A stretch of 60,108 nt of DNA from a virus (Duplodnaviria > Caudoviricetes). Below the pieces are notes generated by a model. That model did not search any database. It was given only the letters and a program-made list of their open reading frames with translations, and was not told where the DNA came from. The stretch spans positions 1-60,108 of the IMG/VR virus record IMGVR_UViG_3300045000_000060. One strand, 5' to 3'. The position numbers and the translations under genes were made by a program. Positions 10,638-52,998 of this stretch are shown one piece after another (the stretch's first letter is position 1; every line of letters starts with the position of its first letter).

Positions 10638-11078
10638 GTGGGTCATCATGCGGGATTAGCCGCGCTGTTGGGACTTACAGGCATTCTCTTGGCCGGCTGC
10701 GCCAGCGTAGAGACCGTAGCGGCCACCAAGCCCCTGATTGCTGATCAGGTCGCCCGTAAAATCATCCTCGATCATCGCTCGATATGGAAAGACCCGGATT
10801 CAATTCGGGACGCCCGGATCGGGCAGCCCTATGCCTGCACCGATGAATCGGTTGCGGCCCCCGGTCCTTACTCAATTGCGACGACAAAGTTGCCGGCCTC
10901 CTGCCTATGCATCGAATTGAATGCCAAAAACTCCTATGGCGGCTATACGGGCATACACCGGACCATTGCGGTGTTTCCTGAAACTGGCGATTTTAGCACC
11001 CTGGACGGCGGGACTAAGGGCTTCCAGGAGCATTGCCAGAACTTGCATCCATTTCCAGAGCTGAACGGCCGGCGCTAA
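10638..11078 (+). CDS. lipoprotein, possible superinfection exclusion
   Basis: lipobox LAGC; KDPDS...NAKNSYGGYTG; directly downstream of cI. Confidence 0.75.
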   Translation: MGHHAGLAALLGLTGILLAGCASVETVAATKPLIADQVARKIILDHRSIWKDPDSIRDARIGQPYACTDESVAAPGPYSIATTKLPASCLCIELNAKNSYGGYTGIHRTIAVFPETGDFSTLDGGTKGFQEHCQNLHPFPELNGRR

Positions 11079-25446: not shown

Positions 25447-25755
25447 ATGACTGAAATGAAAACCATTGGCACCATCGCCCTACTATTAATGCTTTCCGGT
25501 TGCGGAGAAGATCGCCCTCGATATGGTTTCGAGTTCGTCATCTACTGCGGCGACGTTACAATGAGCTACATATCTGACAAAGACGGGCGGGTAAAAAGTC
25601 TCTTACCGCAAATATATTCCCGTGTGTTCTTCTCCTATGGAGGCGGGATGTTCCAAAACGGAATCCCGGTCCCGCTCGAATTGCGGGAAGACTGCCGCAT
25701 CCTGCGAGGTGGCCCGACAATCTGGGTGAACGGCTTTCCGTCCCCTGATGCCTAA
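25447..25755 (+). CDS. lipoprotein
   Basis: lipobox LSGC after a hydrophobic stretch. Confidence 0.65.
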   Translation: MTEMKTIGTIALLLMLSGCGEDRPRYGFEFVIYCGDVTMSYISDKDGRVKSLLPQIYSRVFFSYGGGMFQNGIPVPLELREDCRILRGGPTIWVNGFPSPDA

Positions 25756-26464
25756 ACAGATGAAAGATACCTACATGAACATTTCTCGCAGAGCCGCACT
25801 CGCGCAGATCACCGCGGCCGCGGCGCTTATTAATGGCGCGGCTGCGGCGGAATCTCCCGGCAACAAGCTGGTGATCACCGGCCACCGCGGCAACATCGGA
25901 TCTCGTTTCGTGCCCTACTACAAGGAGCGCGGCTACGACGTGGTGGGGATCGACAAGAAGGACGGCACGGAATCCGATCTGGCGATGCGCGGGGCCTGGG
26001 AAGCCTCACTGGCGGGGGCCGTCGCGATCCTTCATCTCGCGGGCGTCGGCACGCAGGACGCCTCGCAAGCTGACGTGAACCGGGACAACATCCTCGCGAC
26101 GCAAAACTTGCTCCGGGCGGCAAGCGCGGCTGATGTCGGGCGAATCATCTTCACAAGTTCGTGCTGGGTACGGCCCGCACACTACCGGGAAGACAACACC
26201 TCCGAATTGCCGGATCGGCCTTACGGCTGGGCGAAGGTCGCCAATGAACGCGCGGTGACAGAGTGGGTATTGGAGCGCCTAGAGCGTCGTGCCTTCATCA
26301 TCCGGGTCGGCTGGGCGCCACGTGAAGGAGTGCCTAGGCCGGAAGGTTGGGCGAGCAGGCTCTACAATTCGACCAACCATTTGGCGGATTATTTCAATCA
26401 CGCGCTAACCCATCAGACGGCGCAGTATTATTGCGTGGACATGGCGCAGCCGAAGGCTACATGA
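25748..26464 (+). CDS. NAD-dependent epimerase/dehydratase (extended SDR) with Tat-like leader
   Basis: VITGHRGNIG, ILHLAG, IIFTSS, YGWAK; SRRAAL leader. Confidence 0.85.
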   Translation: MPKQMKDTYMNISRRAALAQITAAAALINGAAAAESPGNKLVITGHRGNIGSRFVPYYKERGYDVVGIDKKDGTESDLAMRGAWEASLAGAVAILHLAGVGTQDASQADVNRDNILATQNLLRAASAADVGRIIFTSSCWVRPAHYREDNTSELPDRPYGWAKVANERAVTEWVLERLERRAFIIRVGWAPREGVPRPEGWASRLYNSTNHLADYFNHALTHQTAQYYCVDMAQPKAT

Positions 26465-27543: not shown

Positions 27544-28161
27544 TCACCCGGCCGCGGCGTAGACGCGCCGGTGGTGCCGGTGTGCGACCTTGCGGCGATG
27601 ATCGCGGGCCGCGTAGCGGTGCACGCCCGCAAGCTCAAAATGCCCTTGGTCAGGGTTGCCCCAAACCGCCCCATGCGTGAGCCCGTGGCGCGCCGCCATC
27701 GCGGTCACGCCCGCCGGAAAGGCTCGCGTGACGCGATTGCGGCCGGTCTGGTTGATGTCGATCGCCAGGCCGCGCGGGTGCATGTCGCATCGCCGGCAGC
27801 TGCCATGCGCCCGCCAGCCGCCCATGAAGCTGATGCGATAGCCAGCTGAGACCAAGTCCGAAACAAAGCCGGTGAAATTGTCTGCAGCCTTCGCTGCAAC
27901 CGTGATCGAGATCCCGGCCGCCGTCTTGACAGTGACCAGGCTAGCAACGGCCCCACGATGATGGTCGCGAGCACGAGCGATGCGATGACCGCGAAAGGAC
28001 CGCGCCGAAGCGCGCGTCTCACTTCTGGTCCAACAGCGGACCCCCCTGCCGCCGGCTGGCGTCGTGTAGCTCCGGCAGACCTGATGAGAATTAGAATGGC
28101 GGGCGGCCGAAGCCGGCAAGGCGAACAGGCATAGGAATAGCGTGGCGATGAGATATCGCAT
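27544..28161 (-). CDS. M15-family Zn peptidase with signal peptide (second muralytic enzyme)
   Basis: MHPRGLAIDIN...DQGHFEL; Sec signal ending ASA. Confidence 0.8.
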   Translation of the reverse strand: MRYLIATLFLCLFALPASAARHSNSHQVCRSYTTPAGGRGVRCWTRSETRASARSFRGHRIARARDHHRGAVASLVTVKTAAGISITVAAKAADNFTGFVSDLVSAGYRISFMGGWRAHGSCRRCDMHPRGLAIDINQTGRNRVTRAFPAGVTAMAARHGLTHGAVWGNPDQGHFELAGVHRYAARDHRRKVAHRHHRRVYAAAG

Positions 28162-30540: not shown

Positions 30541-30840
30541 TCAGGTGGCCTGGCGAGTATCGAGCCAGCGCTCCATCGCGTCGATGTCGCCGGTGAACTT
30601 GACCTCGTCGAACTTTCCGCAGCGCCAGCTGTAATCGGGTGCGAAGTAGATCGCATCGAACACCGGATCGAGTGCCATGAGGCGACCGTCCGGATCACGC
30701 TCGGGACCCATGAGGCACCGGATCGTGAGATCGTGGATCTGGACCTGACTCCCTCCGCGACCAACGCGCGCCCGCGCTTCGATAAGCACGAGTTCGGGGC
30801 GCACCTGACCAGGATCGACGGTGCGAAAGTGCCCAATCAT
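30541..30840 (-). CDS. hypothetical protein
   Basis: coupled to the endolysin gene. Confidence 0.55.
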   Translation of the reverse strand: MIGHFRTVDPGQVRPELVLIEARARVGRGGSQVQIHDLTIRCLMGPERDPDGRLMALDPVFDAIYFAPDYSWRCGKFDEVKFTGDIDAMERWLDTRQAT

Positions 30841-31673
30841 CCGTGCGCGGCCTTGGCGACCGCGAGGCGCGTTAGCGGCCCGGCGACGCCGTCAGGCACT
30901 AGGCCGTGCTTGAGCTGGAACTGGGTCACCGCCTCGCGCGTCGCCTCGCCGATCCTGCCGTCGACCGCGAGTTCCGGTTTCGCGCCTGCGCTGTTGAGAT
31001 GCGCCTGCAGCCAGGCCGGCGAGATCAGCTCGTTGGGCGCCAATGCCGACGTTGGCGCCGTATGCACGCCGGGCGCGATGTCCTCGTGGTCGCCGGGGTG
31101 CAGCCGCTCGATGTAGTCGGTCACGGCGGCCACCAGGTCGGCCTTCACCATATGGCGGCCCGGGCAGGACTTGTGGGTGGTGACCGGGTCCTCCTTGTGG
31201 AAGTGCAGCCCGCGCACGCCGAGCTTCTGGTCAGCCGGGTTGAGCCCGATGCGGGCGTGCAGGATGCCGAGCACCGCCACTAGGTTGTCGCGCGTGCCGC
31301 CGTCGAACGGCTCATGCTCGAACTCGCCGACCGTCTCGATCCCCCAGGTGCGCGAATTCCACGCTGGCGAATGGGTGCCCGGCATCGTGAAGGGCGTGAA
31401 CAGCAGGATGCCGTCGGGGGCGACGAAGGCGTGCGGCCCGCCGCTCCACCCCATGCCAGCGTAATAGCTCGCGAGATTGTGCGCCCATTGCTCCGGCGTC
31501 CAGTTGCCGTGCTTGCCCGGGTTGGCACGCCATTCGCGATAGAGCGCGAGGTCGGGCTCGCTGGTGTTGTGCACCACCACGAAGCTCGGCCGCCAGCCGG
31601 TGAACGTCAGGCTGTCGACATGGGCCTGGAAGCCCGCGACGTCGACGAATCTTCCGACAATGCCTTTCCACAT
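30837..31673 (-). CDS. endolysin: N-acetylmuramoyl-L-alanine amidase plus PG-binding domain
   Basis: VVVHNT, GPH, GIETVG, HFHKE, KSCPG; VDGRIGEATREAVTQFQ...PDGVAGPLT. Confidence 0.9.
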   Translation of the reverse strand: MWKGIVGRFVDVAGFQAHVDSLTFTGWRPSFVVVHNTSEPDLALYREWRANPGKHGNWTPEQWAHNLASYYAGMGWSGGPHAFVAPDGILLFTPFTMPGTHSPAWNSRTWGIETVGEFEHEPFDGGTRDNLVAVLGILHARIGLNPADQKLGVRGLHFHKEDPVTTHKSCPGRHMVKADLVAAVTDYIERLHPGDHEDIAPGVHTAPTSALAPNELISPAWLQAHLNSAGAKPELAVDGRIGEATREAVTQFQLKHGLVPDGVAGPLTRLAVAKAAHG

Positions 31674-31683
31674 GGTGGTTTCC

Positions 31684-32019
31684 TCAGTCGGTTAGCGGCG
31701 GCGCGAAGAAGCAGCGACGCGATCCATCCGGCCGCTTGCAGCGCCAATAGGCGCCATCCGGAGACGGCTGCGCCTCGGATTCCGGAATGACCTCGACCAC
31801 GAAGGGACGCACCGATCCACGCACCGGCGCGCTCCACAGCACAAAGGCGCCATCGGAGTTGCGGGTGACGTGCGCTCCGTGGACGAGGAAGCAGTCACCC
31901 TCCCCGCAGCAAAACTCGCCAGCGGCGTTGCGATGGGCGCCGCGGCTGATCCAGCTGTCGTGGGCTGACGCAACATTAAGAGCGCCGGCGAGCGCCAGCG
32001 CGGCAAGGATCATCCGCAT
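31684..32019 (-). CDS. secreted Cys-rich protein
   Basis: signal peptide; CCGEGDC...SPDG..WRC...RCFF. Confidence 0.75.
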   Translation of the reverse strand: MRMILAALALAGALNVASAHDSWISRGAHRNAAGEFCCGEGDCFLVHGAHVTRNSDGAFVLWSAPVRGSVRPFVVEVIPESEAQPSPDGAYWRCKRPDGSRRCFFAPPLTD

Positions 32020-32072: not shown

Positions 32073-34181
32073 CTACGGACCGATCCAGTGGCCGCCAAAA
32101 TATGTGACGTTGGTTGCGCCCTGGACGGTCGCCGTTCCCGCCGATGTCGTGATGAGGGCTTGTACGGTATAGACGTCCGAGCCATTGGCGGCGTCTTCCA
32201 CATAGACGCTAGCAGCGGCGTCATTTGTCGCGGCCGAATTCAGGTTTTGGCGAAGCGCCGACCCGTTCTTGTAGATCGCGATCGCGCATTGCGTGCCCGT
32301 CGTGATCGTTCCCGTTGCATTGAAGGCTGCAAAAAGACTGACCTTTCCAGCCGGCGGGGTCCAGGCATTGCTCGCGAAATTACCATTGACGTTGTAGACG
32401 ACCGTCGGCCAAGTGAGGGCCGTGAAGGTAGCGGTCACGATGCCGGTTTGATCCGTCCCGCCCTTGGTGACCGAGAATGCAGGAACCGCGCCGACGTTTC
32501 CAAACGGCAGGAGGCCGGTGATCGTCGCGCCCGCCCCGAGGTTGACGGTGAGCGCACCCGCCGCCGACAGCGCACCGGCACCGGACAGTGTTTTCGGTAG
32601 CGGATCAACGCCGGTCTGCCCAACTAAGACTTGCCCATCGGTCATCGCGGCGGTGGCCACCATCGCGGCGGTATTTGCGCCCAGCACGACGCCATGCGCC
32701 GTAAATGTGGCCGCCCCGGTACCCCCTTCGGCCACCGGCAACTTGGTTATGTTCCCCGTGCCCGCATCCGCGACCGGCGTTGCCGAGCAATTATAATAGC
32801 CGGGCGCTAACCGGACCGCCGCGGAGTTGCTGCGCAGGTTGATGCAGGTATTGGCGCCGCCGTTGTCGATTGTCAGGCCGCCGATGAACCCGCCCGAGAC
32901 CTTGCCGACGTCGACCATGTTGGTGACGCCGCCGAAGCCGGTCATTGTCACGCCGATGATGTTGATGTCGGTCAGCGCCGCTGCGGACGTGTTGTCGACC
33001 GTGATCGCGTTCGCACCGGTCGCCCCGGCAATCGATCCGCCGGTGATGTTCACGCGGGTGAGCGTCACCGCCGTGTTGATGAAGATACCGGTCGACGTGA
33101 AGCTCTCGATCGAGTTGTTGGTCAGGATCGGGTTGGCCGAGCCGCCCAGGTTCCAGTTGATGTAAATGCCGTATTTGCCGAACAAAAATTTGGAGTTTGA
33201 GATCTTCAAGCCGCCGCTGCTGTTGATCTGCAACGCCGCGCCGTTGGTGTTGTCGGTCGACAGGAACATGCTGTCGCTGATGAACGAGTCGCCGTAATCT
33301 GCGGAAAGCTGGTTCTCGACCAGCGCGCCGACCTTCGAGTTGGAATAGACGTGATCGAGATGCTGCTGCGCCGCATCGATCAGGTGGATGCCGTTGATGT
33401 GGTTGACCATCCACACGTCGCGGAAGGTGTTCTCCACATAGACGTTGCCGTATTTCGCGGCGACGCCGGCTCCGGGCGTGTTGCCGGCCGGCGGCGAGAC
33501 CGTGATGCTGCCGCCGCTCGCCTTGGCGGTGATGGTCGAGAACAGCGTGGCGCCGGCCGCCGCGCAGCTCGTGAGCGCGATGCGCTGGCCGATCGAGGCC
33601 CCCGTGAAGCCGAGCGACGCGCTGGTCACCGTGCCGCTGCCGTTGGTGCAGATCGCGTCCGCGAGGGCGCCCTGGTCGTCGCCCACCGCGATCGCGTCGT
33701 CGCCCGCCTGCGGGGTGCCGGCGCGGTTGAGGTAGCAGCCGGTCATCCGCGCGTAGCTCGCGCGGAAGGCGAACATCACCCCGCCGCCCTGGGCACCGTT
33801 GAAGGTGCCGCCGCTGGCGTTGAGGAAGGGCGCGCACCAGATGTCGATCGGGCCGTTGACGATGATCGGCGCGTTGATGTTGTAATTGCTGCGCGGCACC
33901 AGCAGCCGGCCCGCCGCGCCCGTGCTCGTGATCGAGTTGATGGCCGCCTGGATCGCCGCCGTATTGACCGCGGCGCTCGCGCTCGGCGAGGCCCCGAAGG
34001 TCTCGATGTTGACCGATAAAGTCGTGCCCGGGACGGAACTAAACCCGGCCTGTCCCGGGCCGCGGCCGATCGGAACGGCGCCGGCCGGCACCTGCACCTG
34101 CGCCGCGGCCGGCCCGATGAATCCGATCCAGGCATAGAACAGCACGGCGCAGGCGCGCGCGAGCGAGCTCACGATCTTCAT
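32073..34181 (-). CDS. tailspike/receptor-binding protein (beta-helix plus C1q-like C-terminus) with signal-like N-terminus
   Basis: SVNIETFGA...NTAAIQAAI pectate-lyase-3-like start; Asn/Gly/Ile-rich repeats. Confidence 0.8.
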   Translation of the reverse strand: MKIVSSLARACAVLFYAWIGFIGPAAAQVQVPAGAVPIGRGPGQAGFSSVPGTTLSVNIETFGASPSASAAVNTAAIQAAINSITSTGAAGRLLVPRSNYNINAPIIVNGPIDIWCAPFLNASGGTFNGAQGGGVMFAFRASYARMTGCYLNRAGTPQAGDDAIAVGDDQGALADAICTNGSGTVTSASLGFTGASIGQRIALTSCAAAGATLFSTITAKASGGSITVSPPAGNTPGAGVAAKYGNVYVENTFRDVWMVNHINGIHLIDAAQQHLDHVYSNSKVGALVENQLSADYGDSFISDSMFLSTDNTNGAALQINSSGGLKISNSKFLFGKYGIYINWNLGGSANPILTNNSIESFTSTGIFINTAVTLTRVNITGGSIAGATGANAITVDNTSAAALTDINIIGVTMTGFGGVTNMVDVGKVSGGFIGGLTIDNGGANTCINLRSNSAAVRLAPGYYNCSATPVADAGTGNITKLPVAEGGTGAATFTAHGVVLGANTAAMVATAAMTDGQVLVGQTGVDPLPKTLSGAGALSAAGALTVNLGAGATITGLLPFGNVGAVPAFSVTKGGTDQTGIVTATFTALTWPTVVYNVNGNFASNAWTPPAGKVSLFAAFNATGTITTGTQCAIAIYKNGSALRQNLNSAATNDAAASVYVEDAANGSDVYTVQALITTSAGTATVQGATNVTYFGGHWIGP

Positions 34182-34234: not shown

Positions 34235-34690
34235 TCAGACGCCGACGATCCAGCCGGCCGGGGTGAGAGCGATGCTGGGATAGAACTTCTGGGAAATTCC
34301 CATGCCGACGCCGGCCGACGTCATGGTCCAGGCCGACGATCCCGTCAGTCCACCGATCTCATCCGTGCCGTTCGGCGTCAGCGTGATTGTCGCCGCGGCC
34401 GTCTTGGCGTAGTCGATGATCGTCAGCGGCGCCTTGTTTCTGTTTATGATCGCGCCGAGCGTGAGCGCGACGGTGCCGGCGACCGCGAGATTGATCACGA
34501 TCAGGACGTCCCCGTCCGCGACCGTATAAGGCCCCGCCACAGTGATGATGCGCGGCGCAGCGAGGCTCGCAGCTTCGATGGCGGCGGCCCAGTCTCGAAT
34601 GTCAGATTTGACCGGCTTGTTCGCGCCACTCGACGGAACACCGTCCGTCACGTAATCGCGCCAAATTTCGTTCGCCGTCTTGATCGGCAT
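34235..34690 (-). CDS. tail fibre/adaptor protein
   Basis: TANEIWRDYVTDGVPSSG..KP.K.DIR.W. Confidence 0.7.
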   Translation of the reverse strand: MPIKTANEIWRDYVTDGVPSSGANKPVKSDIRDWAAAIEAASLAAPRIITVAGPYTVADGDVLIVINLAVAGTVALTLGAIINRNKAPLTIIDYAKTAAATITLTPNGTDEIGGLTGSSAWTMTSAGVGMGISQKFYPSIALTPAGWIVGV

Positions 34691-34691
34691 G

Positions 34692-36596
34692 TTAAGGCCC
34701 CACTACCGTGACGGTCGTCGACGACGAGAATGCGGAGGGCGGCCCCGATGGTGCAAAACTTCTCACCTTCACCTCGTAAGTTGCCGGAAACGGCGCGGTA
34801 CGCCCCGCCTTGACCGAGACGCGGCCAGAGGCGAGCGTTCCGCCGGTGTTGGACTCGGTTAAAAACGACCCGCCCGATCCGTTGACGCGCCATTCCACCT
34901 GATAGAGCAGGTCGGACCGACCGGGATCGTCGAAAGAGACGATGAAGTTTCCGGCCAGGAAGACAGGATCGGGTATCGCAGCGACGTTCGCCGGCACGGG
35001 CGGCGGCGGAAACACAAGCTTGCCCGGGATCGAGGCGGCGCTGTTCTCTTCCGTGGCGGGATCCCACGCATCAATCGAGTTGGGATTCACCGACACGAAC
35101 TTGAACGTGACCGACGCATTGAGCAGATCGATGGTCATTGCCCGGATCTCGACCACCAGGCCGACGAGATCGGCCGTGATGTCGGGCACATCGACCAATA
35201 CCCAGCGCTCACCCAGCGCGCGCAACCCATAGAGCGTCGTGGTCAGCGTACCGCGCAGCGGCGCCCGAAATTGCGCCATCCGCCGTTTAGCGAGCCGGCG
35301 CGCCTGCGGATGGGAATACACCCAGGGCAGCGCAAAGCGCTGGGAGCGCGTCTTGCCGCGCGCCGAGATGTCGGTTTCATCGCGCCACGGCCGGCCGGGC
35401 ACCGTCTTATAATCGAGCTGCGGCTCCGTGTAGTCGAGCGTGAGCTCGTTCACGACCTCTTCGTCGGCGAGATCGTATTGCAGCGAGACGCCGCGCACGT
35501 GCTTCGACGACAGCGCGATCGTCGGGGCCCGGTATACCCCGACCTTGAGGGCGAGCGATCCGTCGCCGTTCTGCGATATCCAGCCGTCGCAGGTATCGAG
35601 GATCGAGCTGATCACGTCGGCCGGATCGGAATCGAGCGGAAAGCTGCCGTTGGAAGCGTAGCGCGGTTCGCTGCCGCCGTCGGCGCGGGCCACCCCTGCG
35701 TCGCAGAGATTGGCCTCCACAGTCAGCGCGGCGATGACCGGCGTGATCAGCGTCGCCCATGCAAGCCCCATCCCGCGGTCGGCATTGGTCAGGAAATCCA
35801 CCAGCTGAACGACCGGATTCGCACTGACCTTCCAGGTCGCCGAATTTCCGGCCGCCTGCGCGCCGTCGCGCCAATCATAAATCGGCGTGCAGTCCATCAC
35901 GGCGGAAGGAAGCGGCAATCCGCGGGGGAAGATGGTCGGAAAGTCGCCGATGGCGGCGACCGGATCACATTTCAGCATCAGGCTCGCGATACCGTCGCCG
36001 CGATGGGCCGCCGTCCAGATCGGAAACAGCCCGCTGATGATGGCGCCGAAGGCGGTCTCGGGATCGGTCCCGAGATGCGTCGCGATCGTGACCTTGCCGG
36101 TGCCGTAGCGCCCATCCGCCATCCCGTTGACCACGCCGCCGCCGCCGAGCGTGACCACGTCGTCATGAAGATAGAACCCGACGAACCCCGCAATGCGGCC
36201 GTGATGAAGCGCGATGACGTCATAGGAGACCTTGTTGGACGCCTCGAACAGCATATAGGCGCCGGCAAGTCGGACGCGGCCATAGCCCACGATGCGCGAC
36301 GCGCTGGTCTGACGCACCGGCTGGTGGCCGGCTTCCGGCGGCGGCAATGCGGGACCGCCCGGTATCGATGCCCGGTTCGGGCGATTGAGCAGAAGTTGCA
36401 GGCCGATCGAGCCGGCGAGGATGACCGCGGTGCCGACCGCGGTCGCTACAGTGAGGGTTCCGATGATGACCGTGCTGGCGAGCAGCTCGGCACCGATCGC
36501 CTCCAGGATGACGGCGCCGATCACTTCCGCGGCATGCTTCACGGCATGCAGAAGATCGGCATGGGCCTGCAGGGTGGCCAGAGCATCCTCAAGCAT
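34692..36596 (-). CDS. tail tip/central fibre protein (gpJ-like, C-terminal Fn3)
   Basis: YGRVRLAG, WKVSANP, EPRY, QARRLAK, YEVKVRS. Confidence 0.85.
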   Translation of the reverse strand: MLEDALATLQAHADLLHAVKHAAEVIGAVILEAIGAELLASTVIIGTLTVATAVGTAVILAGSIGLQLLLNRPNRASIPGGPALPPPEAGHQPVRQTSASRIVGYGRVRLAGAYMLFEASNKVSYDVIALHHGRIAGFVGFYLHDDVVTLGGGGVVNGMADGRYGTGKVTIATHLGTDPETAFGAIISGLFPIWTAAHRGDGIASLMLKCDPVAAIGDFPTIFPRGLPLPSAVMDCTPIYDWRDGAQAAGNSATWKVSANPVVQLVDFLTNADRGMGLAWATLITPVIAALTVEANLCDAGVARADGGSEPRYASNGSFPLDSDPADVISSILDTCDGWISQNGDGSLALKVGVYRAPTIALSSKHVRGVSLQYDLADEEVVNELTLDYTEPQLDYKTVPGRPWRDETDISARGKTRSQRFALPWVYSHPQARRLAKRRMAQFRAPLRGTLTTTLYGLRALGERWVLVDVPDITADLVGLVVEIRAMTIDLLNASVTFKFVSVNPNSIDAWDPATEENSAASIPGKLVFPPPPVPANVAAIPDPVFLAGNFIVSFDDPGRSDLLYQVEWRVNGSGGSFLTESNTGGTLASGRVSVKAGRTAPFPATYEVKVRSFAPSGPPSAFSSSTTVTVVGP

Positions 36597-45135: not shown

Positions 45136-45273
45136 GGCTTAGGTCCAAACCCGCGGATTGAGGGGGAGGCCACGCGGCCCTAACTTGATACCGATCAAGG
45201 GCTTAGGGCGGGGGGCAATGATGTTCCGTTAGTGGGCTTGACCGCAGGTTGGCCCGGAGGGTGTAATAGAGCC

Positions 45274-45885
45274 ATGAACCAGCTAGTCCATTATGTGCGT
45301 CGGGTCCGCGATGTTTTCCGGGAGCACCGACTAGGCGTCGTCACTTCCGAGTGGCACGAACAGCACGACACCGCGCGACCTGATTTCCGGGGCTATTCCC
45401 CAACGTCATATCGTGATTGGTGGGTAATTCGTCGCCACATCACCGTCTCTCCGCAGTCGGCATTCATCGACTACGGCGCAGGACTCGGCCGAGTGACTGT
45501 GCTTGCGGCCCGCATGCCATTTACCCGCGTCATCGGTCTCGAATTGGATGAGGGACTGGCTGAGCGCGCCAACGCGAACTTACGGAATGCGCGCGGAATG
45601 ATCGCTGCCGCGCAAATTGTCTGCCGCAATGCCGCGAGCTTCGAAGTGCCCCCCGATGCAACAACGTTCTATTTCTGCAATCCCTTTGCCGGGTCAGTTC
45701 TGTTTGCTGTCGTAGATAGGATTCGGGATTCACTTACCACACATCCTAGGCTCACGCAGTTAGTCTGCAACCTGCCGGAATCCAGTGCATTCGAAGTTGA
45801 AATCAAGGGCGTCCCGTGGCTCTGTCTGCGAAAGACGTTTGCGCTATATGAACGGCGAAAGTGCCTGATATTTGAGGCCGGCTAA
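45274..45885 (+). CDS. class I SAM-dependent methyltransferase (moron, antisense to late operon)
   Basis: YSPT, FIDYGAGLGR, IGLELD, YFCNPF; TTGACC/TGTAAT promoter-like at 45238-45267. Confidence 0.85.
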   Translation: MNQLVHYVRRVRDVFREHRLGVVTSEWHEQHDTARPDFRGYSPTSYRDWWVIRRHITVSPQSAFIDYGAGLGRVTVLAARMPFTRVIGLELDEGLAERANANLRNARGMIAAAQIVCRNAASFEVPPDATTFYFCNPFAGSVLFAVVDRIRDSLTTHPRLTQLVCNLPESSAFEVEIKGVPWLCLRKTFALYERRKCLIFEAG

Positions 45886-48290
45886 GCCGCCTTATTGAGC
45901 CACATTGGCGTGTTGTCGTTCGATGCCGGATCGAGGTCGCGCTTGAGCAGATACGGCAGGTTGTTGATGACGCCTTGGTTAGTGATGAACTCCACAGTAG
46001 CGGTGAACGGATCGCCTGATCCTGCAATATTCGCGCTGCACTCCGGCGAAAATTGATTCGACAACACCCACGCTCCGACTCCCGCCGCCGTCAATGTGTC
46101 GCCACTTTGCGCCCCCGATGTCGTCGTTGGCGTTATGGTGCGGGCAGTCGCATTTGCGACCTTCGCATTGATGATGGGGTTAATGCCTGTAGAAGAACTC
46201 GACGAACCAAGAATCTGGATATGCGCAATCTGATCAAGCTGAACGTTGAGAGAAACGCCTGTATATGCAGATGAAACCACAGTGTTCATGCTAGTTAGTT
46301 GTCCCCAGATGGGCACTATAGGTGTGACAGGCGCGCAGTTGGCCGCCGTCAATGTCCGCTTCGAATATGACCATAAAGGTGCCCCGGCTGGTGCTTGATT
46401 TAAATCTAATGCATCGGCGCTGCCACTACAATTCACGCATGTAAATTGCGGGGCGCTAACGACAACTACACTCGCTTGTCCTCCAGATAAAGGCATCGTT
46501 GGAAAGCCACCTGCCAACGATGTATCAATGTACGTATTAGTTGCGTCCTGCCTCAAATCGAGAACTTGAAACACCGGACCCTGACGCGGAAAAGCACCAC
46601 CAAACGAAACGTTGGCACCCGGTACGGCCCACACCATCGGCAAAGAGCCGCCATTTCCGTTGCATGCAAGGAAGTGTTGGCCGGACTGGCTCCCCGACGT
46701 ATTGACTGGAGCACCTCCGTCGCTCAGCGAAAATTGAAATGTATTAGCTGTGAGCCCTGCAGCCAGAACGAAGTAGCTCGTCCCCGCCGTCACACCAGTC
46801 GGAAGCGCCCCACTCGTGCCAAACACAATGCGGTAACTAGCTAGTAAGCCGTGAGCGGTTTTTGTCACAACCGCTGGAGACGCGATCGACATAGTCAAGT
46901 TGTTGACCGATTGCGTCGTTCCCTGAACATCGAAGTGCGTGCCATCTACAACAGTAATTGTTGCTGCGTGCGCTCCGCAGTTCGCATGTGTTAAGATGGT
47001 TATGTCGGTCACTAACCCCGTCGAATAACCAGCAGTAGAATCAACTAGAATACGCGAAAGGCCGGAGCCATTGTCAGCCGATCCGAGGATCTGAAAATTA
47101 TGCGGCACGGTAAAGGTGCCGCCCGACCATGCCCCACGAAGGTTGACTGCGTCGGCTTGGGCGGCAGTAGCGGTGATGCTGCCCATCGATGTATTAGAGA
47201 CCGATGTAAGCCCCATCGATGCGCCGTAAGCATGCGGACCGAAGCCAGCGTTCGTAATTGTTGAGTTCGTGATTGTATTTGCGAAAGCGGTCCCGTTAAG
47301 CGTAGTCAGTGTCACAGTATCGAGCGTCAAGCTTTGCACGCTCGCGCTTTGAAAGTTTAGCTGGCGAATAGGCAGGTTTTGATAAAGAACCGTTCCAATT
47401 ATCTTGTCGATTTCAATCGTACACCCTGACATGTCGCCGCCGATTACGCGGTACCGCATATTCTGGGTCGGAAAGGTACAATTGCCTCCAACAAAAGAGG
47501 GATTCCTCCAAGTTATGTCCCGCCCAATTGCCTGAGTTGGTGCGATTGTTTGGCTAATGCGAAGATTAGCGTATTCTTGTACTGTATCCCAATTTTGCTG
47601 CATCGCGTAGAGGGTCGCCGGGCCTCCTTGGTCCGAATGAAACGCATCGCCCCCATTATAAAGCGGCCACGTCGATTTATAGGTGTGGGCGAGAACATTG
47701 GTAAAACAAACTGTTCCGACACCCTTGGACGCAACCTTAGTCCATTCGTAAATCATTGGGTTTGCCGGGTCTCCGAAGCCCATCGGATCTATCCCGCCCA
47801 TCAGCACCCATTCGCCGACATTGTATAGACTTGTCTGTCCAGCCGTGATTAGCGTGACACACGATGAACCTTTAGCCGCGGTCTGCGTGCGGGCGGAGTG
47901 TACGTTGTCAAAATAGGTGCCGGCTGCTGATCCGCCGCCGAGAAAATACCCCCCAACGCCGCCACCATCGCTGAATGTTGCCCCGTTCGCGTCGAGGAGA
48001 AAGTTCTTCAGACCAGCAAAAATTGACTGCCCTAATCCGGGCGTCAAGAATGAGCAGGTATTCGCAGATGATGGAACGGTGAGTTTTATCAGTCCGCCCG
48101 GATGCCCGGACTGGAACGTAAGCGCATCACTCAGCCATGTTGTGAAGCCCGGCCCGTCATTTACGATGCCGTTGCAGGCGGTGTAGGTCGTGATGTTGTA
48201 GGTGATCGCAGGCTGCTGGCCAGCGCCATGCGTCCAAGCCAACAAAAACGTTAGCGATATGGCGCATAGAAGAAGCCGAGCCCATTTCAA
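45882..48290 (-). CDS. large signal-peptide-bearing beta-rich fibre/spike-like protein
   Basis: Sec-like leader; Thr/Asn/Gly-rich beta-helix-like body; paired Cys. Confidence 0.75.
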   Translation of the reverse strand: MKWARLLLCAISLTFLLAWTHGAGQQPAITYNITTYTACNGIVNDGPGFTTWLSDALTFQSGHPGGLIKLTVPSSANTCSFLTPGLGQSIFAGLKNFLLDANGATFSDGGGVGGYFLGGGSAAGTYFDNVHSARTQTAAKGSSCVTLITAGQTSLYNVGEWVLMGGIDPMGFGDPANPMIYEWTKVASKGVGTVCFTNVLAHTYKSTWPLYNGGDAFHSDQGGPATLYAMQQNWDTVQEYANLRISQTIAPTQAIGRDITWRNPSFVGGNCTFPTQNMRYRVIGGDMSGCTIEIDKIIGTVLYQNLPIRQLNFQSASVQSLTLDTVTLTTLNGTAFANTITNSTITNAGFGPHAYGASMGLTSVSNTSMGSITATAAQADAVNLRGAWSGGTFTVPHNFQILGSADNGSGLSRILVDSTAGYSTGLVTDITILTHANCGAHAATITVVDGTHFDVQGTTQSVNNLTMSIASPAVVTKTAHGLLASYRIVFGTSGALPTGVTAGTSYFVLAAGLTANTFQFSLSDGGAPVNTSGSQSGQHFLACNGNGGSLPMVWAVPGANVSFGGAFPRQGPVFQVLDLRQDATNTYIDTSLAGGFPTMPLSGGQASVVVVSAPQFTCVNCSGSADALDLNQAPAGAPLWSYSKRTLTAANCAPVTPIVPIWGQLTSMNTVVSSAYTGVSLNVQLDQIAHIQILGSSSSSTGINPIINAKVANATARTITPTTTSGAQSGDTLTAAGVGAWVLSNQFSPECSANIAGSGDPFTATVEFITNQGVINNLPYLLKRDLDPASNDNTPMWLNKAA

Positions 48291-49414
48291 CAGCCGGCTC
48301 CCGTTGCGGCCAGAGTATGGCGACAGGTCGCCCCGCCGGTCGGCGTATAAGTCAGGACGATGATGCCTTGAGCGCCCGCAGCACCACTCCCACCCGCTCC
48401 TACGGAGGCGCCATAGGCACCGCCTCCACCTCCATACAAACCGCCGGCCCCAGGAACCCCTGATACCGTAGCGGCATTAGTTCCACCGGCTGCGCCGCCC
48501 CCACCGCCCGATCCATGCGTGGCGTCCCAGTCGATGCCGGCGCCGCCGGTTCCGCCGGTTCCAGTCGCGGCAGCAGCAGCGGTATTTCCTCCACCGCCAC
48601 CGCCGCCCGATCCGTGAGATCCATTGCCGCCAGCTGTGGGAGTTGTTGCGCTGGCTGTCCCTCCAATGCCGCCCGCGGTTGTGTCTAAAGCCGTTCCGCC
48701 GGCAGAACCATTATCAAGCCCTGCATCGCTTGCAGCATTTCCACCGCCGCCATTTCCACCGCCGCCCGAACCACCGTGAAGAGTGCCAGAAGCGCCACCC
48801 CCTGCGCCGCCGTTCCCGCCCGGTCCCGCAGCACCGCCGCCACCTGTGTTGCCAAAAGCGCTATTAATTGGAGCCCCGCCTGCGCCTCCACTAAATTTGG
48901 TTACCCCAACACCTGACGCCGCAACGCCACCGGAACCCGCCACCGGGCTGCCACTGCTGCCGCCAACACCCCCACCGCCAGCTTTTGCACCTACTTGGAC
49001 CGCTGTTCCAGCGATGCTGGCACAATTCGTTGTCGCGTTACAGACAAAGGTATCAGTGCCGCTATTTCCTGTTCCTGCCCCGCTCCCAGCTCCTCCGGTG
49101 CCGACTGCAATACCTATTTGCCCGCTAAGGGCGATTCCGGTTGACTTGGAATAGGCTCCGCCGCCGCCACCCGCGCCATTGTTGACTGAATTCGAGCCAG
49201 AACCCGCGCCACCCCCACCGATAGTCTCGACCGTGCCGGTGCCGGGCCAGTCGCCCGGCATCGTGATCGTGGTCGCAGTCGTATCAGTACAGACAATGAT
49301 CTTGGGCGGACCGGCAACGATGGTCGACAGCGTGCAATCCGCCGCTTGCGCATCCGACCAGCCAAAGCCGATCAGTGCAATCAGCGCGGCAAGTATCCTG
49401 AATGCCCTGGCCAT
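48287..49414 (-). CDS. glycine-rich fibre protein with signal peptide
   Basis: AQA cleavage site; GGGG repeats; GAQGIIVLTY. Confidence 0.8.
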   Translation of the reverse strand: MARAFRILAALIALIGFGWSDAQAADCTLSTIVAGPPKIIVCTDTTATTITMPGDWPGTGTVETIGGGGAGSGSNSVNNGAGGGGGAYSKSTGIALSGQIGIAVGTGGAGSGAGTGNSGTDTFVCNATTNCASIAGTAVQVGAKAGGGGVGGSSGSPVAGSGGVAASGVGVTKFSGGAGGAPINSAFGNTGGGGAAGPGGNGGAGGGASGTLHGGSGGGGNGGGGNAASDAGLDNGSAGGTALDTTAGGIGGTASATTPTAGGNGSHGSGGGGGGGNTAAAAATGTGGTGGAGIDWDATHGSGGGGGAAGGTNAATVSGVPGAGGLYGGGGGAYGASVGAGGSGAAGAQGIIVLTYTPTGGATCRHTLAATGAGC

Positions 49415-49433
49415 AGCGTTCGCTGTGTACTGG

Positions 49434-50216
49434 TTATTGCTGGACGTAGGTGATGACGCCCGACACGCGACTGGTCGTGTTCTGCGTCAGGCAGACATTG
49501 TCGGCATTTGCGGCGCTGGCGATCGCGACTGCGCCCAGGCCGTTGCCGGAGGTCAGACCGCCGTTCGCGGCGAGGCTTTGGCCGTTGGCCGCCGTTGTGC
49601 TGCCCAGCACGGCCGACGAGCCCGTCGCGCATACCGCGCCGGTGCCGGCGATGAGGTTCACGATCTCGGCTGCGCCGACAATCAGGTTGATCGAGCAGAT
49701 GTAGGTTTTCTTCGCTGAGGTCCCAGCGATGATCTGCGTGCTGGTCGCCTGGCTGATCGGGACGTTCGTCTTGGCGATCTGGCTGCACGGGTCCGGCGTC
49801 GTAAAGCCGATCAGGTTGGCGCCAGCCGGAATTGAAGCGCTGACCGACGTGTTGAGGGTCGAGAGGTTCTGGTTGGTCCGCTTGACCAGCTGCCCGATCG
49901 TGCAGGTTCCGTTGTCGGTCGCACAGGCGGCATCGGCGAGGCCGGTCACAATATCTGGATTACGCGTCACCAGCGCGAGGTCGGTCTGCGCGGCGGCCGA
50001 CGAGGCGGCTTTCACGGTGACGCAGTTGGCGCCGGCGACGCCGTCGCACAGGACACCGGCCGCGAGGTTATTGGTGCTGCCGTCGGTCACCGTGGTAAAG
50101 GTGATGGTCGCGCCCGCGGCGTTTTTCGTCGTGATCGTACCAGCCCCGGCCCATGCGAGGGACGGGACCAGCGCGCTTGCAAGCAGCGCGGCGCGACAGA
50201 TGCGAAGCGCGATCAT
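49434..50216 (-). CDS. signal-peptide-bearing head fibre-like protein
   Basis: MIALRICRAALLASALVPSLAWA; IPAGANLIG; paired Cys. Confidence 0.75.
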   Translation of the reverse strand: MIALRICRAALLASALVPSLAWAGAGTITTKNAAGATITFTTVTDGSTNNLAAGVLCDGVAGANCVTVKAASSAAAQTDLALVTRNPDIVTGLADAACATDNGTCTIGQLVKRTNQNLSTLNTSVSASIPAGANLIGFTTPDPCSQIAKTNVPISQATSTQIIAGTSAKKTYICSINLIVGAAEIVNLIAGTGAVCATGSSAVLGSTTAANGQSLAANGGLTSGNGLGAVAIASAANADNVCLTQNTTSRVSGVITYVQQ

Positions 50217-50470
50217 TTCGGCGGCTCCTGTGTGTTCTTCAGTTCGACGTCCGGTGTGGCGGGCGTTTGCTGCGTCACCTCCGGGGCGGCGTCGAGCAGC
50301 GTCTTGAGCTGCACCGTGACCGACGCAACCTGCAGCCCATAGGCCTTGGTGGCGAGGTCGAGGACCTGCGCCAGCGCGGCCCGGTTCTGGTCGTTGAGGA
50401 TCAGCGCCACGTCCTTGGCGCTGGTCGGCACTGGGGCGAGCAGGAGGAGCGCGAGGAAGAATCGGCTCAT
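50213..50470 (-). CDS. small signal-peptide protein
   Basis: MSRFFLALLLLAPVPTSA; coupled. Confidence 0.65.
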   Translation of the reverse strand: MSRFFLALLLLAPVPTSAKDVALILNDQNRAALAQVLDLATKAYGLQVASVTVQLKTLLDAAPEVTQQTPATPDVELKNTQEPPK

Positions 50471-50679
50471 CGGAGAACCACCATGTATTGGATCGTGCCG
50501 CATGCCGTGGTGAAGTCGAGACCAACTGCGCCGCAAGGCGTGCTGGGGGCCGCCGCGCCGCCCCCGCTGCGGCCCGTCAGCGTGATCCCCATCCCGCTCA
50601 TCGAGCGCTGCGCATGCGCACAGGCCACAAGGCCGATGAGGGCTGCGGCAGCCGAGAGGCAGAGCCAGGTGCGGGACAT
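50467..50679 (-). CDS. small signal-peptide protein (spike adaptor candidate)
   Basis: AHA cleavage site; GMGITL; PCG...ACG. Confidence 0.6.
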   Translation of the reverse strand: MSRTWLCLSAAAALIGLVACAHAQRSMSGMGITLTGRSGGGAAAPSTPCGAVGLDFTTACGTIQYMVVLR

Positions 50680-50686
50680 CGCGACC

Positions 50687-51019
50687 TCAATAGAGCCCGG
50701 AGATGCTGGTCGCGGTCGTCCCGGTCGCCAGTACCTTGTCGACCCGGATGGGAAGAAGGAATCCCGTTGGAACGCCGACGATCGTGTCGGTCGTCCCGTC
50801 GATGTAGCGCACCGCGAGATTGCCGGTTCCCCCGACCCAGACGGCGCGCGTTGGCTGGGTAAAGACGGTCGCATCGCTCGCGGTGACCGCGAAGCCGCCG
50901 GTCGCCGGGCTGTCGAGGCTGACGGTGTAGCTCGCGAACTTGTCGGCGGCGAAGCAGACCCCGCCAAACGCGAGCAGCAGCGAACCCACCAGGAAGCTTC
51001 GCCGAGTCGACATAGACAA
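50687..51019 (-). CDS. head spike base protein (RcGTA Rcc01079-like) with Tat-like leader
   Basis: SPATGGFAVTASD...TRAVWVGGTGNLAV...LPIRVDKVLATGTTA; STRRSFL. Confidence 0.8.
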   Translation of the reverse strand: MSMSTRRSFLVGSLLLAFGGVCFAADKFASYTVSLDSPATGGFAVTASDATVFTQPTRAVWVGGTGNLAVRYIDGTTDTIVGVPTGFLLPIRVDKVLATGTTATSISGLY

Positions 51020-51046: not shown

Positions 51047-51700
51047 TCAGGTGAGCGGATTGATGTAGGGGCCGAGATCGTCCATCACGTCTTGCGAGAT
51101 GGAGGGATCATTGGACGCGCCGATCCAGCGCTGCACTTCCATCACCCCGGGGATGTTGATCTGCCGAACGTTCGGATCGCGACCGTCTTTGAACCAATAC
51201 AGGCGCATCAGCTTCTCAGCGGCGCGCTTGAGGCCTTCCGGAACGGTGTCCCAGCCGGCGTCATAGCTGACGACGACCAGGCCACGTGCCCACTCCATCG
51301 GGTTGCCGTTGAATAGGCGCATCAGTCCGCCGCTACCCGCCCGGACCTCGTAGTCCGCAGCGACCAATGTCGTCCCGGCTTCCACAACGGACGTGATCGC
51401 GACAATCGGGCGGCGAGAGAGATAGAGAACGGTCCGGTCGCCCTGATGCTCGCTGCGACCCCACCAGCGATTGAGCCGGAAGGTGTCGGTCAGGCTTTCC
51501 TTGCGCAGCGTCGCGGGTGTCGCCCCGTCGGTCGCCACCTTGCAGGCCTGCGTGATCGCGTCGGCGACGCGCCGGCCCAACCGCGCCAGATCAACATCTT
51601 TGCTGCCGTCGGTAACGCCAACTGCAGTGCGCAACTCGGCACTCGTCAACAGCGTCAGATCATTCGCGGCGGTGGCGACGCGGAGAACGGGCGATAGCAC
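51047..51700 (-). CDS. head-tail adaptor
   Basis: LLTSAEL...LSRRPIVAITSV.E...VVSYDAGW..VPEGLK.A. Confidence 0.85.
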   Translation of the reverse strand: MLSPVLRVATAANDLTLLTSAELRTAVGVTDGSKDVDLARLGRRVADAITQACKVATDGATPATLRKESLTDTFRLNRWWGRSEHQGDRTVLYLSRRPIVAITSVVEAGTTLVAADYEVRAGSGGLMRLFNGNPMEWARGLVVVSYDAGWDTVPEGLKRAAEKLMRLYWFKDGRDPNVRQINIPGVMEVQRWIGASNDPSISQDVMDDLGPYINPLT

Positions 51701-52221: not shown

Positions 52222-52998
52222 CTACGGTTCCTTCGTCAGAGGGTTGGGATGCTTGGAGTGGTCATAACGCGCCTCGATCTCATCGGCGCTCGGCAGCTTA
52301 TCGCGCGGCGTAAAGGCCACGCGCACCGGCTGGTCGCCCCCGCCTGTCAGGTCGAGATCGAGGGTGTCGTAGCCGTAAATGCGATCCTGCTCGTCGCACA
52401 TCGCGTCCATCAGCGACGTCTTGTCTGGAATGCCGATGCGAATCCCGCGCGCCTTGGCGATGCCAAGATGGAATTCGGTGCAGGCGCGGCCCTTCTCGGC
52501 GTCATGCGCGTTCGGATAGGTGTAGTCGCAGCCGAACATGGTGATGCGCTTGACACCGATATGGACCGCATAGGCGACCGCGTAGGCCGCCGTATTGTTG
52601 AAATAGGCGATGCCGCAGGAATTGATCACGTCCTCGAGCGGGAACGCGACCAAGCCGGGATAGTCCGGATGCGTACGGCTGGTGTAGACCGGGCCCGGAT
52701 GCTTGCGCAGCCAGGCGAGCATGGCGGCGATATTGCTTCGCGGACGGGCGGCCGCTCGGATTTCCTGGATGCGCACGTCGTCCATGTGGAAGATGCGGTC
52801 GCATTGCAGCACGTCGCCGAGCGCATTGATCGCCCACACCTCGTCGGCGAACCAGCGCCGATTGCCGATCCGCTTGACGCGATCCATGTAGGCTTCGGCC
52901 GAGGGGCCGAGCCCGATGATCACGACATGGGCGGGTGGCGCAGGTGCCGCCGGCGGCTTGACTGATACCGCCCGCCGACGGCTCTTGCGTCGCGCCAC
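52222..52998 (-). CDS. glycosyltransferase-like protein (GT29/GT42/Maf-type fold)
   Basis: VVIIGLGPS, VWAIN, NTAAYAVAYAVHIGVKRITMFGCDY. Confidence 0.7.
   Translation of the reverse strand: MARRKSRRRAVSVKPPAAPAPPAHVVIIGLGPSAEAYMDRVKRIGNRRWFADEVWAINALGDVLQCDRIFHMDDVRIQEIRAAARPRSNIAAMLAWLRKHPGPVYTSRTHPDYPGLVAFPLEDVINSCGIAYFNNTAAYAVAYAVHIGVKRITMFGCDYTYPNAHDAEKGRACTEFHLGIAKARGIRIGIPDKTSLMDAMCDEQDRIYGYDTLDLDLTGGGDQPVRVAFTPRDKLPSADEIEARYDHSKHPNPLTKEP

Follow-up and report, generated by a model that had tools for sequence, protein, structure and literature searches.

The window analysed here is the whole of IMG/VR virus record IMGVR_UViG_3300045000_000060 (60,108 nucleotides; completeness 100% by CheckV), from a temperate siphovirus that encodes an integrase and a repressor. 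Within its late operon, behind the head-tail adaptor gene, lie six tightly packed genes of the same orientation (A-F; 45882-51013, minus strand), whose products all start with an export-type leader. The first of them, A, is a head spike base of the type known from the gene transfer agent RcGTA, and the order of genes in a sister phage indicates that this leader-bearing base took the place of a leaderless one. An exported spike base, together with a knobbed fibre and a sugar-cutting spike, suggests that virion parts of this phage mature outside the cytoplasm. The six genes and the leader of A are as follows.

50687-51013, minus strand: gene A, 108 residues, head spike base (Rcc01079 family) with leader; matches NF048002, 6tb9 and phrog_12296
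50948-51013, minus strand: leader of A, MSTRRSFLVGSLLLAFGGVCFA, with a TRRSFL motif and predicted cut CFA↓ADKF, from alignment with homologues
50467-50679, minus strand: gene B, 70 residues, leader AHA↓Q and a small domain with a conserved Cys pair; homologues in loci L024, L026 and L016
50213-50470, minus strand: gene C, 85 residues, leader TSA↓KDV followed by a helical part without Cys; homologues in L024, L026 and L058
49434-50216, minus strand: gene D, 260 residues, leader AWA↓GAGTITTK, then two short loops with Cys, a helix and, at the C-terminus, a jelly-roll knob
48287-49414, minus strand: gene E, 375 residues, leader AQA↓ADC, glycine-rich, 6 Cys, third-position GC content (GC3) 0.54
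45882-48290, minus strand: gene F, 802 residues, leader ending LAWTHG, right-handed beta-helix, fibre module at residues 460-547, C-terminal domain, GC3 0.56

Leaders were called with a home-made heuristic (not SignalP) that looks for positive charge in the n-region, a hydrophobic stretch free of charges and small residues at positions -3 and -1; signal peptides generally have a positive n-region, an h-region of about 8-16 hydrophobic residues and small residues at -3/-1. All six of A-F were positive. An earlier note on this DNA, made from its letters alone, had described six leader-type open reading frames (ORFs) behind the adaptor, and their starts, spacing and leaders proved to be as it gave them, with every leader end that it listed present (STRRSFL..CFA, ACAHA, PTSA, SLAWA, AQA and MKWARLLLCAISLTFLLA). 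Across the window, 13 of 91 gene models were positive at the called start, and 17 of 91 when internal Met starts were allowed; the seven beyond A-F include a 702-residue protein, a 111-residue protein, an M15-peptidase-like protein and a Tat-like epimerase, and g258 and a 92-residue protein are probable false positives of the heuristic. Core head and tail proteins had been said to lack such leaders, and indeed the heuristic was negative for every one of them: TerS, TerL, portal, protease, major capsid protein (MCP), adaptor, head closure, neck, terminator, tube, tape measure protein (TMP) and the J-like fibre. Leader positions are conserved among homologues and leader sequences are not, with the AxA ends falling exactly where leaderless homologues begin. 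Genuine export of A-F as secretory proteins is thus very probable on comparative grounds, by Sec for most of them and perhaps by Tat (twin-arginine translocation) for A, whose TRRSFL fits the Tat consensus S/T-R-R-x-F-L-K; in B, the LVAC of the leader is also compatible with a lipobox. An artefact, in which translation really starts further downstream or the N-termini, though hydrophobic, do not direct export, might be entertained from the home-made nature of the calls, the TTG start of F and the want of a clear Shine-Dalgarno sequence before E, but it is very improbable: there is no in-frame start codon at A's leader/mature junction, leaders recur in relatives of A (5/42), D (107/120) and F (69/150), and varied leader sequences keep conserved AxA junctions and are accompanied by Cys pairs.

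The resemblance of the first ORF to the RcGTA head spike base, also put forward in the earlier note, was borne out. Residues 24-108 of A span the entire NF048002 profile (spike base protein, RCAP_Rcc01079 family; positions 1-85 of 85) with 93.7 bits against a cut-off of 28, and A matches the RcGTA base in PDB entry 6tb9 (chain E3) at E 1e-11, as well as phrog_12296; no other spike-base match occurs in the record. Its relatives (n=42) are mostly 78-90 residues long. In an alignment of 18 of these 42 homologues, the five leader-bearing members are the window's protein, P0002, P0003, P0004 and P0008, the last four on contigs of 0.8-1.7 kb, too short for neighbourhood reading. The five leaders are of 22-25 residues and of differing sequence, and all end A/S-x-A/S directly before (A/D)DKF; the leaderless members begin M(A/T)DKF. 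The 22-residue leader of A is placed exactly at Met1 of its leaderless relatives, and 28 invariant columns, including the N-terminal D-K-F arm, are common to leader-bearing (n=5) and leaderless (n=11) bases. In the published account of the RcGTA particle, the base pentamer attaches to the capsid through its N-termini, and the N-terminal arm, free at residue 2, contacts two of the capsid proteins in a penton (PMC7296036). A as encoded has 22 residues ahead of this arm, and only the predicted cut CFA↓ADKF would free it. Because the base binds the capsid by its N-terminus, only a cut at AxA↓ADKF would restore the working end of A; with the leader still in place, that end would be blocked.

Few members of the family bear a leader: 0/32 places in genomes from a single alphaproteobacterial order (with matches in 60 of 401 genomes), 0/13 further loci and 1/33 further viral loci. 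A genome-contig scan with A alone gave no match; with the A-family alignment it gave 10 loci, none leader-bearing, and a metagenome scan gave five, mostly short, of which L103 and L104 are leaderless. A distant spike-base homologue in locus L173 (4283-4630) has the leader MKWLIDRITAVMIGLAIASPFIFSAAFA↓QSQ and a GTGA-coupled start, and occupies the position usual for a base, flanked by head genes and adaptor; no cassette follows it. In a quick, poorly resolved tree on the 85-residue domain, L173 falls far from the window's group, within which leader-bearing and leaderless forms are interleaved; L173 looks like an independent gain of a leader.

The surroundings of A were compared with those of leaderless bases. 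The sister phage, viral contig L150, is 73% identical to the window in MCP, 76% in g258 and 65% in adaptor, and has the order MCP, decorator, g258, g168, leaderless base, adaptor, g133 and head closure (Hc1), with no A-F cassette. The same order of base, adaptor and g133 is seen in L092, an alphaproteobacterial metagenome-assembled genome, and in L103 and L104 a g168-like gene is followed by a leaderless base. In the window, the gap between g168 and adaptor is only 12 nt and the leaderless base is absent, and the interval between adaptor and g133 holds leader-bearing A, B-F and a methyltransferase gene. Since the sister's base is leaderless and the window keeps no leaderless copy, the gene order indicates that an exported base replaced a cytoplasmic one, by replacement and not addition.

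With the RcGTA head spike (Rcc01079 and Rcc01080; 6TB9, PMC7296036), A has in common that it is a full-length family member in a head module, with fibre-type genes behind it. It differs in its 22-residue leader, whereas Rcc01079 and all bases inspected but six start at the domain, and an Rcc01080-like fibre whose N-terminus is of the IALGLGLGL type was not seen, the downstream proteins being leader-bearing and Cys-rich. In RcGTA, the IALGLGLGL anchor of the fibre, with five alternating hydrophobic residues, plugs the base pentamer (PMC7296036). The earlier note had been reminded of this anchor by GMGITL in the second ORF. The likeness is weak, the mature start of B (QRSMSGMGITL) having three alternating hydrophobic residues as against five, and the B family occurs without the base. 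B as a plug of A was therefore set aside as unsupported, its relatives lying in cassettes without a base and its conserved part being a C-terminal Cys loop (motif PC..LDF..C). The homologues of C in L024, L026 and L058 share its A↓KDV junction, and among the D-family loci examined, relatives of E were found only in L046 and L044. B-F had no match in Pfam, PHROGs or NCBIfam, and a PDB sequence search of B, D, E and F gave nothing significant.

Cysteines set these proteins apart from the core of the particle. Mature B, D, E and F have even numbers of Cys (2, 8, 6 and 12) and A and C none, and Cys content is 1.6-5.7% in B, D, E and F versus 0-0.6% in MCP, portal, tube, TMP, adaptor and J-like fibre. 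The closely paired motifs listed in the earlier note were confirmed: D has CDGVAGANC and CATDNGTC, E has CNATTNC, F has CVNC and B has PCG..ACG. How Cys and leader go together could be followed in the F family, in which 69 of the 150 best representatives were flagged for a leader and many others begin directly at the beta-helix motif. When F was aligned with 49 of these 150 (34 leader-flagged and 16 unflagged sequences in all), its cysteines were conserved as follows.

C39: 94% with leader, 6% without leader
C79: 94% with leader, 0% without leader
C271: 79% with leader, 0% without leader
C290: 79% with leader, 25% without leader
C618: 82% with leader, 6% without leader

This association is the strongest sign, from comparison of family members, that the leaders probably work and that folding takes place in an oxidising compartment. 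The earlier picture of exported, disulfide-bearing, appendage-type proteins has strong comparative support, in that AxA junctions fall at homologue starts and Cys pairs track leaders. Two motifs mark the leader junction in 31 of the 150 F representatives, 14 with W(T/I/V)HG and 17 with F(A/G/T)I(F/Y)(Q/R); outside the junction (104,632 residues), W(T/I/V)HG occurs 0 times and the FAIFQ type once. F itself has LAWTHG at the leader end, with WTHG at 48219-48230. The junction motif may be a docking or sorting peptide, and would fit a docking peptide made by cleavage.

F is otherwise of the depolymerase spike type. Its model (predicted local distance difference test score, pLDDT, 83.9) is a right-handed parallel beta-helix that matches the fold of 21 PDB entries at E<=0.001, and the top matches are phage tailspikes and capsule depolymerases (4y9v at E 1.4e-7, then 4ru4, 4ru5, 7w1c and 8bke). 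Residues 460-547 form a module that also occurs in tail-fibre proteins from 21 phage records. In a 50%-identity library, 5085 sequences are related to F at E<=1e-3, and PF12708 was matched by 4/50 relatives. The beta-helix fold is shared, at E 1.4e-7 to 1e-4 and probability 1.00, with the tailspike depolymerases AP22 gp54 (4y9v), LKA1 gp49 (4ru4), phi297 gp61 (4ru5) and the Klebsiella K1 lyase (7w1c); unlike these, F has a leader and no N-terminal particle-binding domain, the beta-helix motif beginning about 8 residues past the leader, and its leader-bearing relatives have extra conserved Cys pairs.

The D family is at least 304 strong at E<=1e-3 (8000 candidates scored). Among the 120 relatives listed, 107 were flagged for a leader, and several of the other 13 seem N-terminally truncated. 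Conservation is concentrated in the C-terminal ~120 residues, the N-terminal parts being variable, and C144, C174, C196 and C242 are invariant. The AlphaFold2 model has a mean pLDDT of 69.9 and is reliable only at residues 137-260, which form a jelly-roll knob. Its top fold match is Ena1B (7a02_A; Z 7.6, root-mean-square deviation 4.1 over 104 residues), followed by XepA (Z 7.3) and then TNF/C1q-like and phage knob domains, all in the generic range. The Ena endospore appendages (DUF3992) combine a jelly roll with an N-terminal Cys connector; the match of D's knob to them is a generic one, and D has no Pfam match. As a lead only, ESM Atlas placed D among unnamed clusters labelled 100% viral (scores 0.92-0.94). 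The family was not found in the 401 genomes searched from the alphaproteobacterial order, a weak blank with 5 candidates per genome scored, though the same search recovered the window's own copy of D as a control.

The fold matches of D also included the C-terminal domains of Bd2133 (Z 6.0), which bears on the idea that A-F are fibres shown on the lysogen surface and expressed from the prophage, as a form of lysogenic conversion. The MAT fibres of Bdellovibrio are phage-fibre-like, and all 21 are described as bearing signal peptides (PMC10769870), as here, and the window's phage is temperate. According to the same source, MAT fibres are cellular and surface-displayed, with a conserved N-terminal beta-rich domain and often an S74 chaperone; neither domain was seen here, Pfam giving neither an S74 chaperone domain nor any other match for A-F. 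Given also that a Z of 6.0 is generic for jelly rolls, that no outer-membrane secretion or anchoring component was seen, and that the genes sit inside the late operon, with their translation coupled to it and without a surplus of promoter-like sites, surface display on the lysogen is unlikely.

Similar blocks of exported genes were found in other phages. A scan of IMG/VR with the D alignment left 80 loci, in which a leader was called for 69 of 83 D-family ORFs, counting from the start of the longest ORF or from an internal Met. In L024, L026, L016 and L058, D has homologues of B and C upstream of it, and in L025, L075, L084, L066, L076 and L050 a homologue of F comes one gene downstream of it. 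Runs of 3-7 consecutive, co-oriented flagged genes including D were seen in 31 of 75 loci; 29 of the 75 scored zero for runs, partly from crude ORF picking that lost the D gene. B, C, D and F homologues thus recur as exported-gene blocks in the structural modules of many uncultivated phages. In 6 of 12 loci annotated with PHROGs, the D-family gene is beside portal, MCP, protease or TerL, and the cassette was placed as follows.

L012: between portal and scaffold/MCP
L014, L034, L053: after MCP
L051: between TerL and a portal-like gene
L058: after portal and head-morphogenesis genes
L031: before TerL
L033, L020: near lysis or baseplate genes

What the comparisons show is that A belongs to the spike-base family, that the leaders are there and go with Cys pairs, that the cassette is widespread and that a leaderless base was replaced; from these findings we infer export, cleavage, disulfide formation and, above all, docking on the virion. 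A-F would be translated late along with the structural operon and would cross the inner membrane, A perhaps by Tat and the others by Sec; signal peptidase would trim them, and periplasmic disulfides would stabilise them. They would meet DNA-filled capsids only upon opening of the inner membrane by holin, when the freed N-terminal arm of A (ADKF...) could dock as a pentamer on capsid pentons, like Rcc01079 in RcGTA, and the knob fibre D, the glycine-rich E and/or the depolymerase F could ride on A or bind the particle elsewhere. The lesions that canonical holins open in the membrane are large and precede failure of the outer membrane, and the amidase endolysin of this phage, having no leader, needs such lesions. 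P22 tailspikes bind heads in vitro, so late addition of a spike is physically possible. Export followed by docking once holin has opened the inner membrane is a tentative reading, plausible but somewhat short of an even chance. The earlier note's suggestion that the proteins are added to capsids at or after lysis accords with A being, its leader apart, an orthodox capsid-docking protein that took the place of a leaderless copy like the sister's. Docking is favoured because the only base gene is exported, its capsid arm is kept and would be exposed by cleavage, and the sister's base is leaderless. It is also supported by the fibre/tailspike type of D, F and the 702-residue protein, by the D-family genes that adjoin head genes in half of the annotated loci, by the tight coupling of genes with promoter-like and terminator-like sites not above those of shuffles (3 versus 2.3 expected and 5 versus 7.6 expected, respectively), and by L173 as a second, distant lineage with a leader-bearing base in the usual place.

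Several observations weigh against docking. The leader heuristic has a background of ~12% (150 of 1228 ORFs outside cassettes in 75 other viral loci), a rate at which six consecutive positives are nevertheless far beyond chance. A spike base lies within 10 kb of the D-family gene in 0/80 viral loci, so the cassette does not need A, and the junctions that it occupies vary (TerL/portal, portal/scaffold, after MCP, near endolysin), as for cargo genes. A-D have a GC3 of 0.80-0.88, native to the phage, as against 0.54-0.61 for E, F and the methyltransferase (45232-49414), foreign in a genome of ~0.8-0.88, which makes the cluster a composite one. Titles and abstracts gave no description of tailed-phage appendages that mature in the periplasm. 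These points bear on a quite different possibility, only a little less likely than docking in our estimate and in line with the secreted effectors or decoys of the earlier note, that A-F are exported and never bound to the virion, as late cargo acting in the periplasm or freed at lysis. F and the 702-residue protein would then cut capsule, exopolysaccharide (EPS) or O-antigen, D and E would bind glycans, and A would be the pentameric hub of a free complex, with easier release, receptor destruction on debris or exclusion of other phages as the effect. Phage lambda has leader-bearing genes in its late regions, lom, bor and cor, each of them a lone gene for a small outer-membrane protein or lipoprotein that has no relation to virion parts. 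The window shares with them leader genes in a structural operon, but here six are consecutive and homologous to spike or fibre proteins. The cassette without a spike base in 80/80 viral loci and in varied positions, the foreign composition of the E-F-methyltransferase block with its oppositely oriented methyltransferase, and the want of an N-terminal particle-binding domain in F all agree with such cargo. So does WceF of Pantoea stewartii, described as a Tat-exported, tailspike-like beta-helix that acts on EPS as a depolymerase (PMC7949094) and, in this respect, like F, though WceF is presented there as a single chromosomal gene in an EPS cluster and F lies in a phage late operon beside a spike base and four other exported proteins. 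Cargo that never meets the virion leaves unexplained why the sole spike-base gene bears a leader and the leaderless sister copy is gone, and why neither the arm that binds the capsid nor any invariant residue has been lost; a decoy or receptor-destroying logic would call for a leaderless tailspike of matching type, of which the window has none, and separate promoters or terminators were not seen.

Tailed-phage particles are usually viewed as assembled wholly in the reducing cytoplasm. A, with its grafted export signal beside exported fibre proteins of disulfide type, challenges this cytoplasm-only view. A two-compartment assembly, in which heads and tails are made in the cytoplasm and the outermost receptor-binding parts are exported, cut, disulfide-locked and snapped on after holin action, is possible, though rather less than probable. 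If A-F are instead secreted and never docked, they would also be new, as a widespread, unnamed class of late-expressed secreted phage proteins. The families concerned are large (D at least 304, F 5085, with recurring B and C homologues) and none has a Pfam or PHROG name; annotation pipelines call such genes 'tail fiber' and overlook the leader. The findings bear on the discovery of receptor-binding proteins and depolymerases in viromes and on stable adhesins for soil.

A case in culture is at hand. The Bradyrhizobium phage ppBdUSDA122-1, a siphophage that Bradyrhizobium diazoefficiens USDA 122 releases spontaneously in culture (PMC10127595), has two genes after its J-like tail protein, WAX24264.1 (482 residues) and WAX24263.1 (865 residues, 18 Cys, annotated 'tail fiber protein'), both Cys-rich and with leaders, and makes the question directly testable now. 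Under two-compartment assembly, these fibre proteins and the leader blocks of soil phages would be the same system. In this region (L177, OP596612.1, 5285-9366), an opposite-strand acyltransferase gene and the endolysin gene come after the two fibre genes, a layout that repeats the window's. A term search of the ppBdUSDA122-1 paper returned no mention of signal peptides, tail fibres or proteomics (PMC10127595), and a search for the phage's name in titles and abstracts found no literature naming it.

The features that flank A-F, and those of the tail-fibre slot, are given below.

51047-51700, minus strand: head-tail adaptor, directly preceding gene A
45232-45885, plus strand: methyltransferase, convergent with and abutting F, not among the exported proteins; weak Pfam methyltransferase matches, GC3 0.61
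32073-34181, minus strand: 702-residue protein with leader, pectate-lyase-like features and a C1q-like knob, in the tail-fibre slot
31684-32019, minus strand: 111-residue protein with leader and 5 Cys, between the 702-residue gene and the endolysin gene

The 702-residue protein is a second case of a leader-bearing fibre-type protein, here in the tail-fibre slot. ESM Atlas gave pectate-lyase-like features (score 0.84, a lead only), a structure search led to the C1q-like knob, and its three closest relatives have leader-like N-termini, as judged by eye. The first 32-34 residues of a 151-residue protein (34235-34690, minus strand) match the N-termini of longer fibre or tailspike proteins, such as Rhizobium phage 16-3 p023 (803 residues) and Brucella phage BiPBO1 gp30 (621 residues). 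In the 151-residue protein, all that follows this motif is a small beta domain; 53 nt further comes the gene for the 702-residue protein with its leader. A split tailspike, with the 151-residue protein as a cytoplasmic anchor stub for the exported 702-residue protein, was considered and dropped, as the relative P0316 has a leader and a similar motif in one chain; a complex prediction with three copies of the 151-residue protein and three of residues 28-150 of the 702-residue protein scored 0.00 ('no answer') and is neutral. The J-like central fibre (34692-36596, minus strand; 634 residues) matches positions 8-622 of the 873 of phrog_5616, and its usual C-terminal part seems to be missing.

The late operon, on the minus strand, opens with TerS, TerL, portal, a ClpP-type protease and an HK97-type MCP, followed by a phrog_5707 protein, the DUF115/MptE-like g258, the 168-residue g168, the adaptor and A-F. 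After these come the plus-strand methyltransferase, a 133-residue gene (g133), a 158-residue gene and Hc1, then neck, tail terminator, tube, chaperones, TMP, distal tail proteins and the J-like fibre; the 151-, 702- and 111-residue proteins and the amidase endolysin end it. The earlier note placed six ORFs between adaptor and head closure; the six genes do lie there, but the methyltransferase, 133-residue and 158-residue genes also precede head closure. The gaps are 33 nt between adaptor and A, 7 nt between A and B and 19 nt between D and E, with four-base overlaps at B/C and C/D (ATGA) and at E/F (TTGA). Gene A starts with ATG at 51013, with GGAGGA upstream, and the stops of F and the convergent methyltransferase overlap (45882-45885). 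The phage is a soil phage. Among sequencing runs, only small shares (0.06-0.10) were seen, in four soil metagenome runs from one study; no RNA sequencing run was among the sequencing runs listed as carrying the window's DNA.

Some other genes of the window were noted as well. g258 (52222-52998, minus strand), between the decorator-like gene and g168, has a weak PF01973 match (E 0.0022, below cut-off) and is possibly an enzyme of glycosyltransferase type that acts on virion proteins. g258-like genes are found in L150, at 76% identity, and in L017, L062 and L063, where they adjoin D-family genes. An NAD-dependent epimerase/dehydratase (25748-26464, plus strand; PF01370, E 2e-21) has a twin-arginine-like start, ISRRAAL, and would be a phage-encoded exported enzyme of the sugar-nucleotide type. 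A 205-residue leader protein (27544-28161, minus strand) with a weak Peptidase_M15_4 match lies apart from the amidase endolysin (30837-31673). Finally, a lipoprotein-like gene (10638-11078, plus strand; LLAGC) adjoins a repressor-like gene and is a candidate superinfection-exclusion protein.

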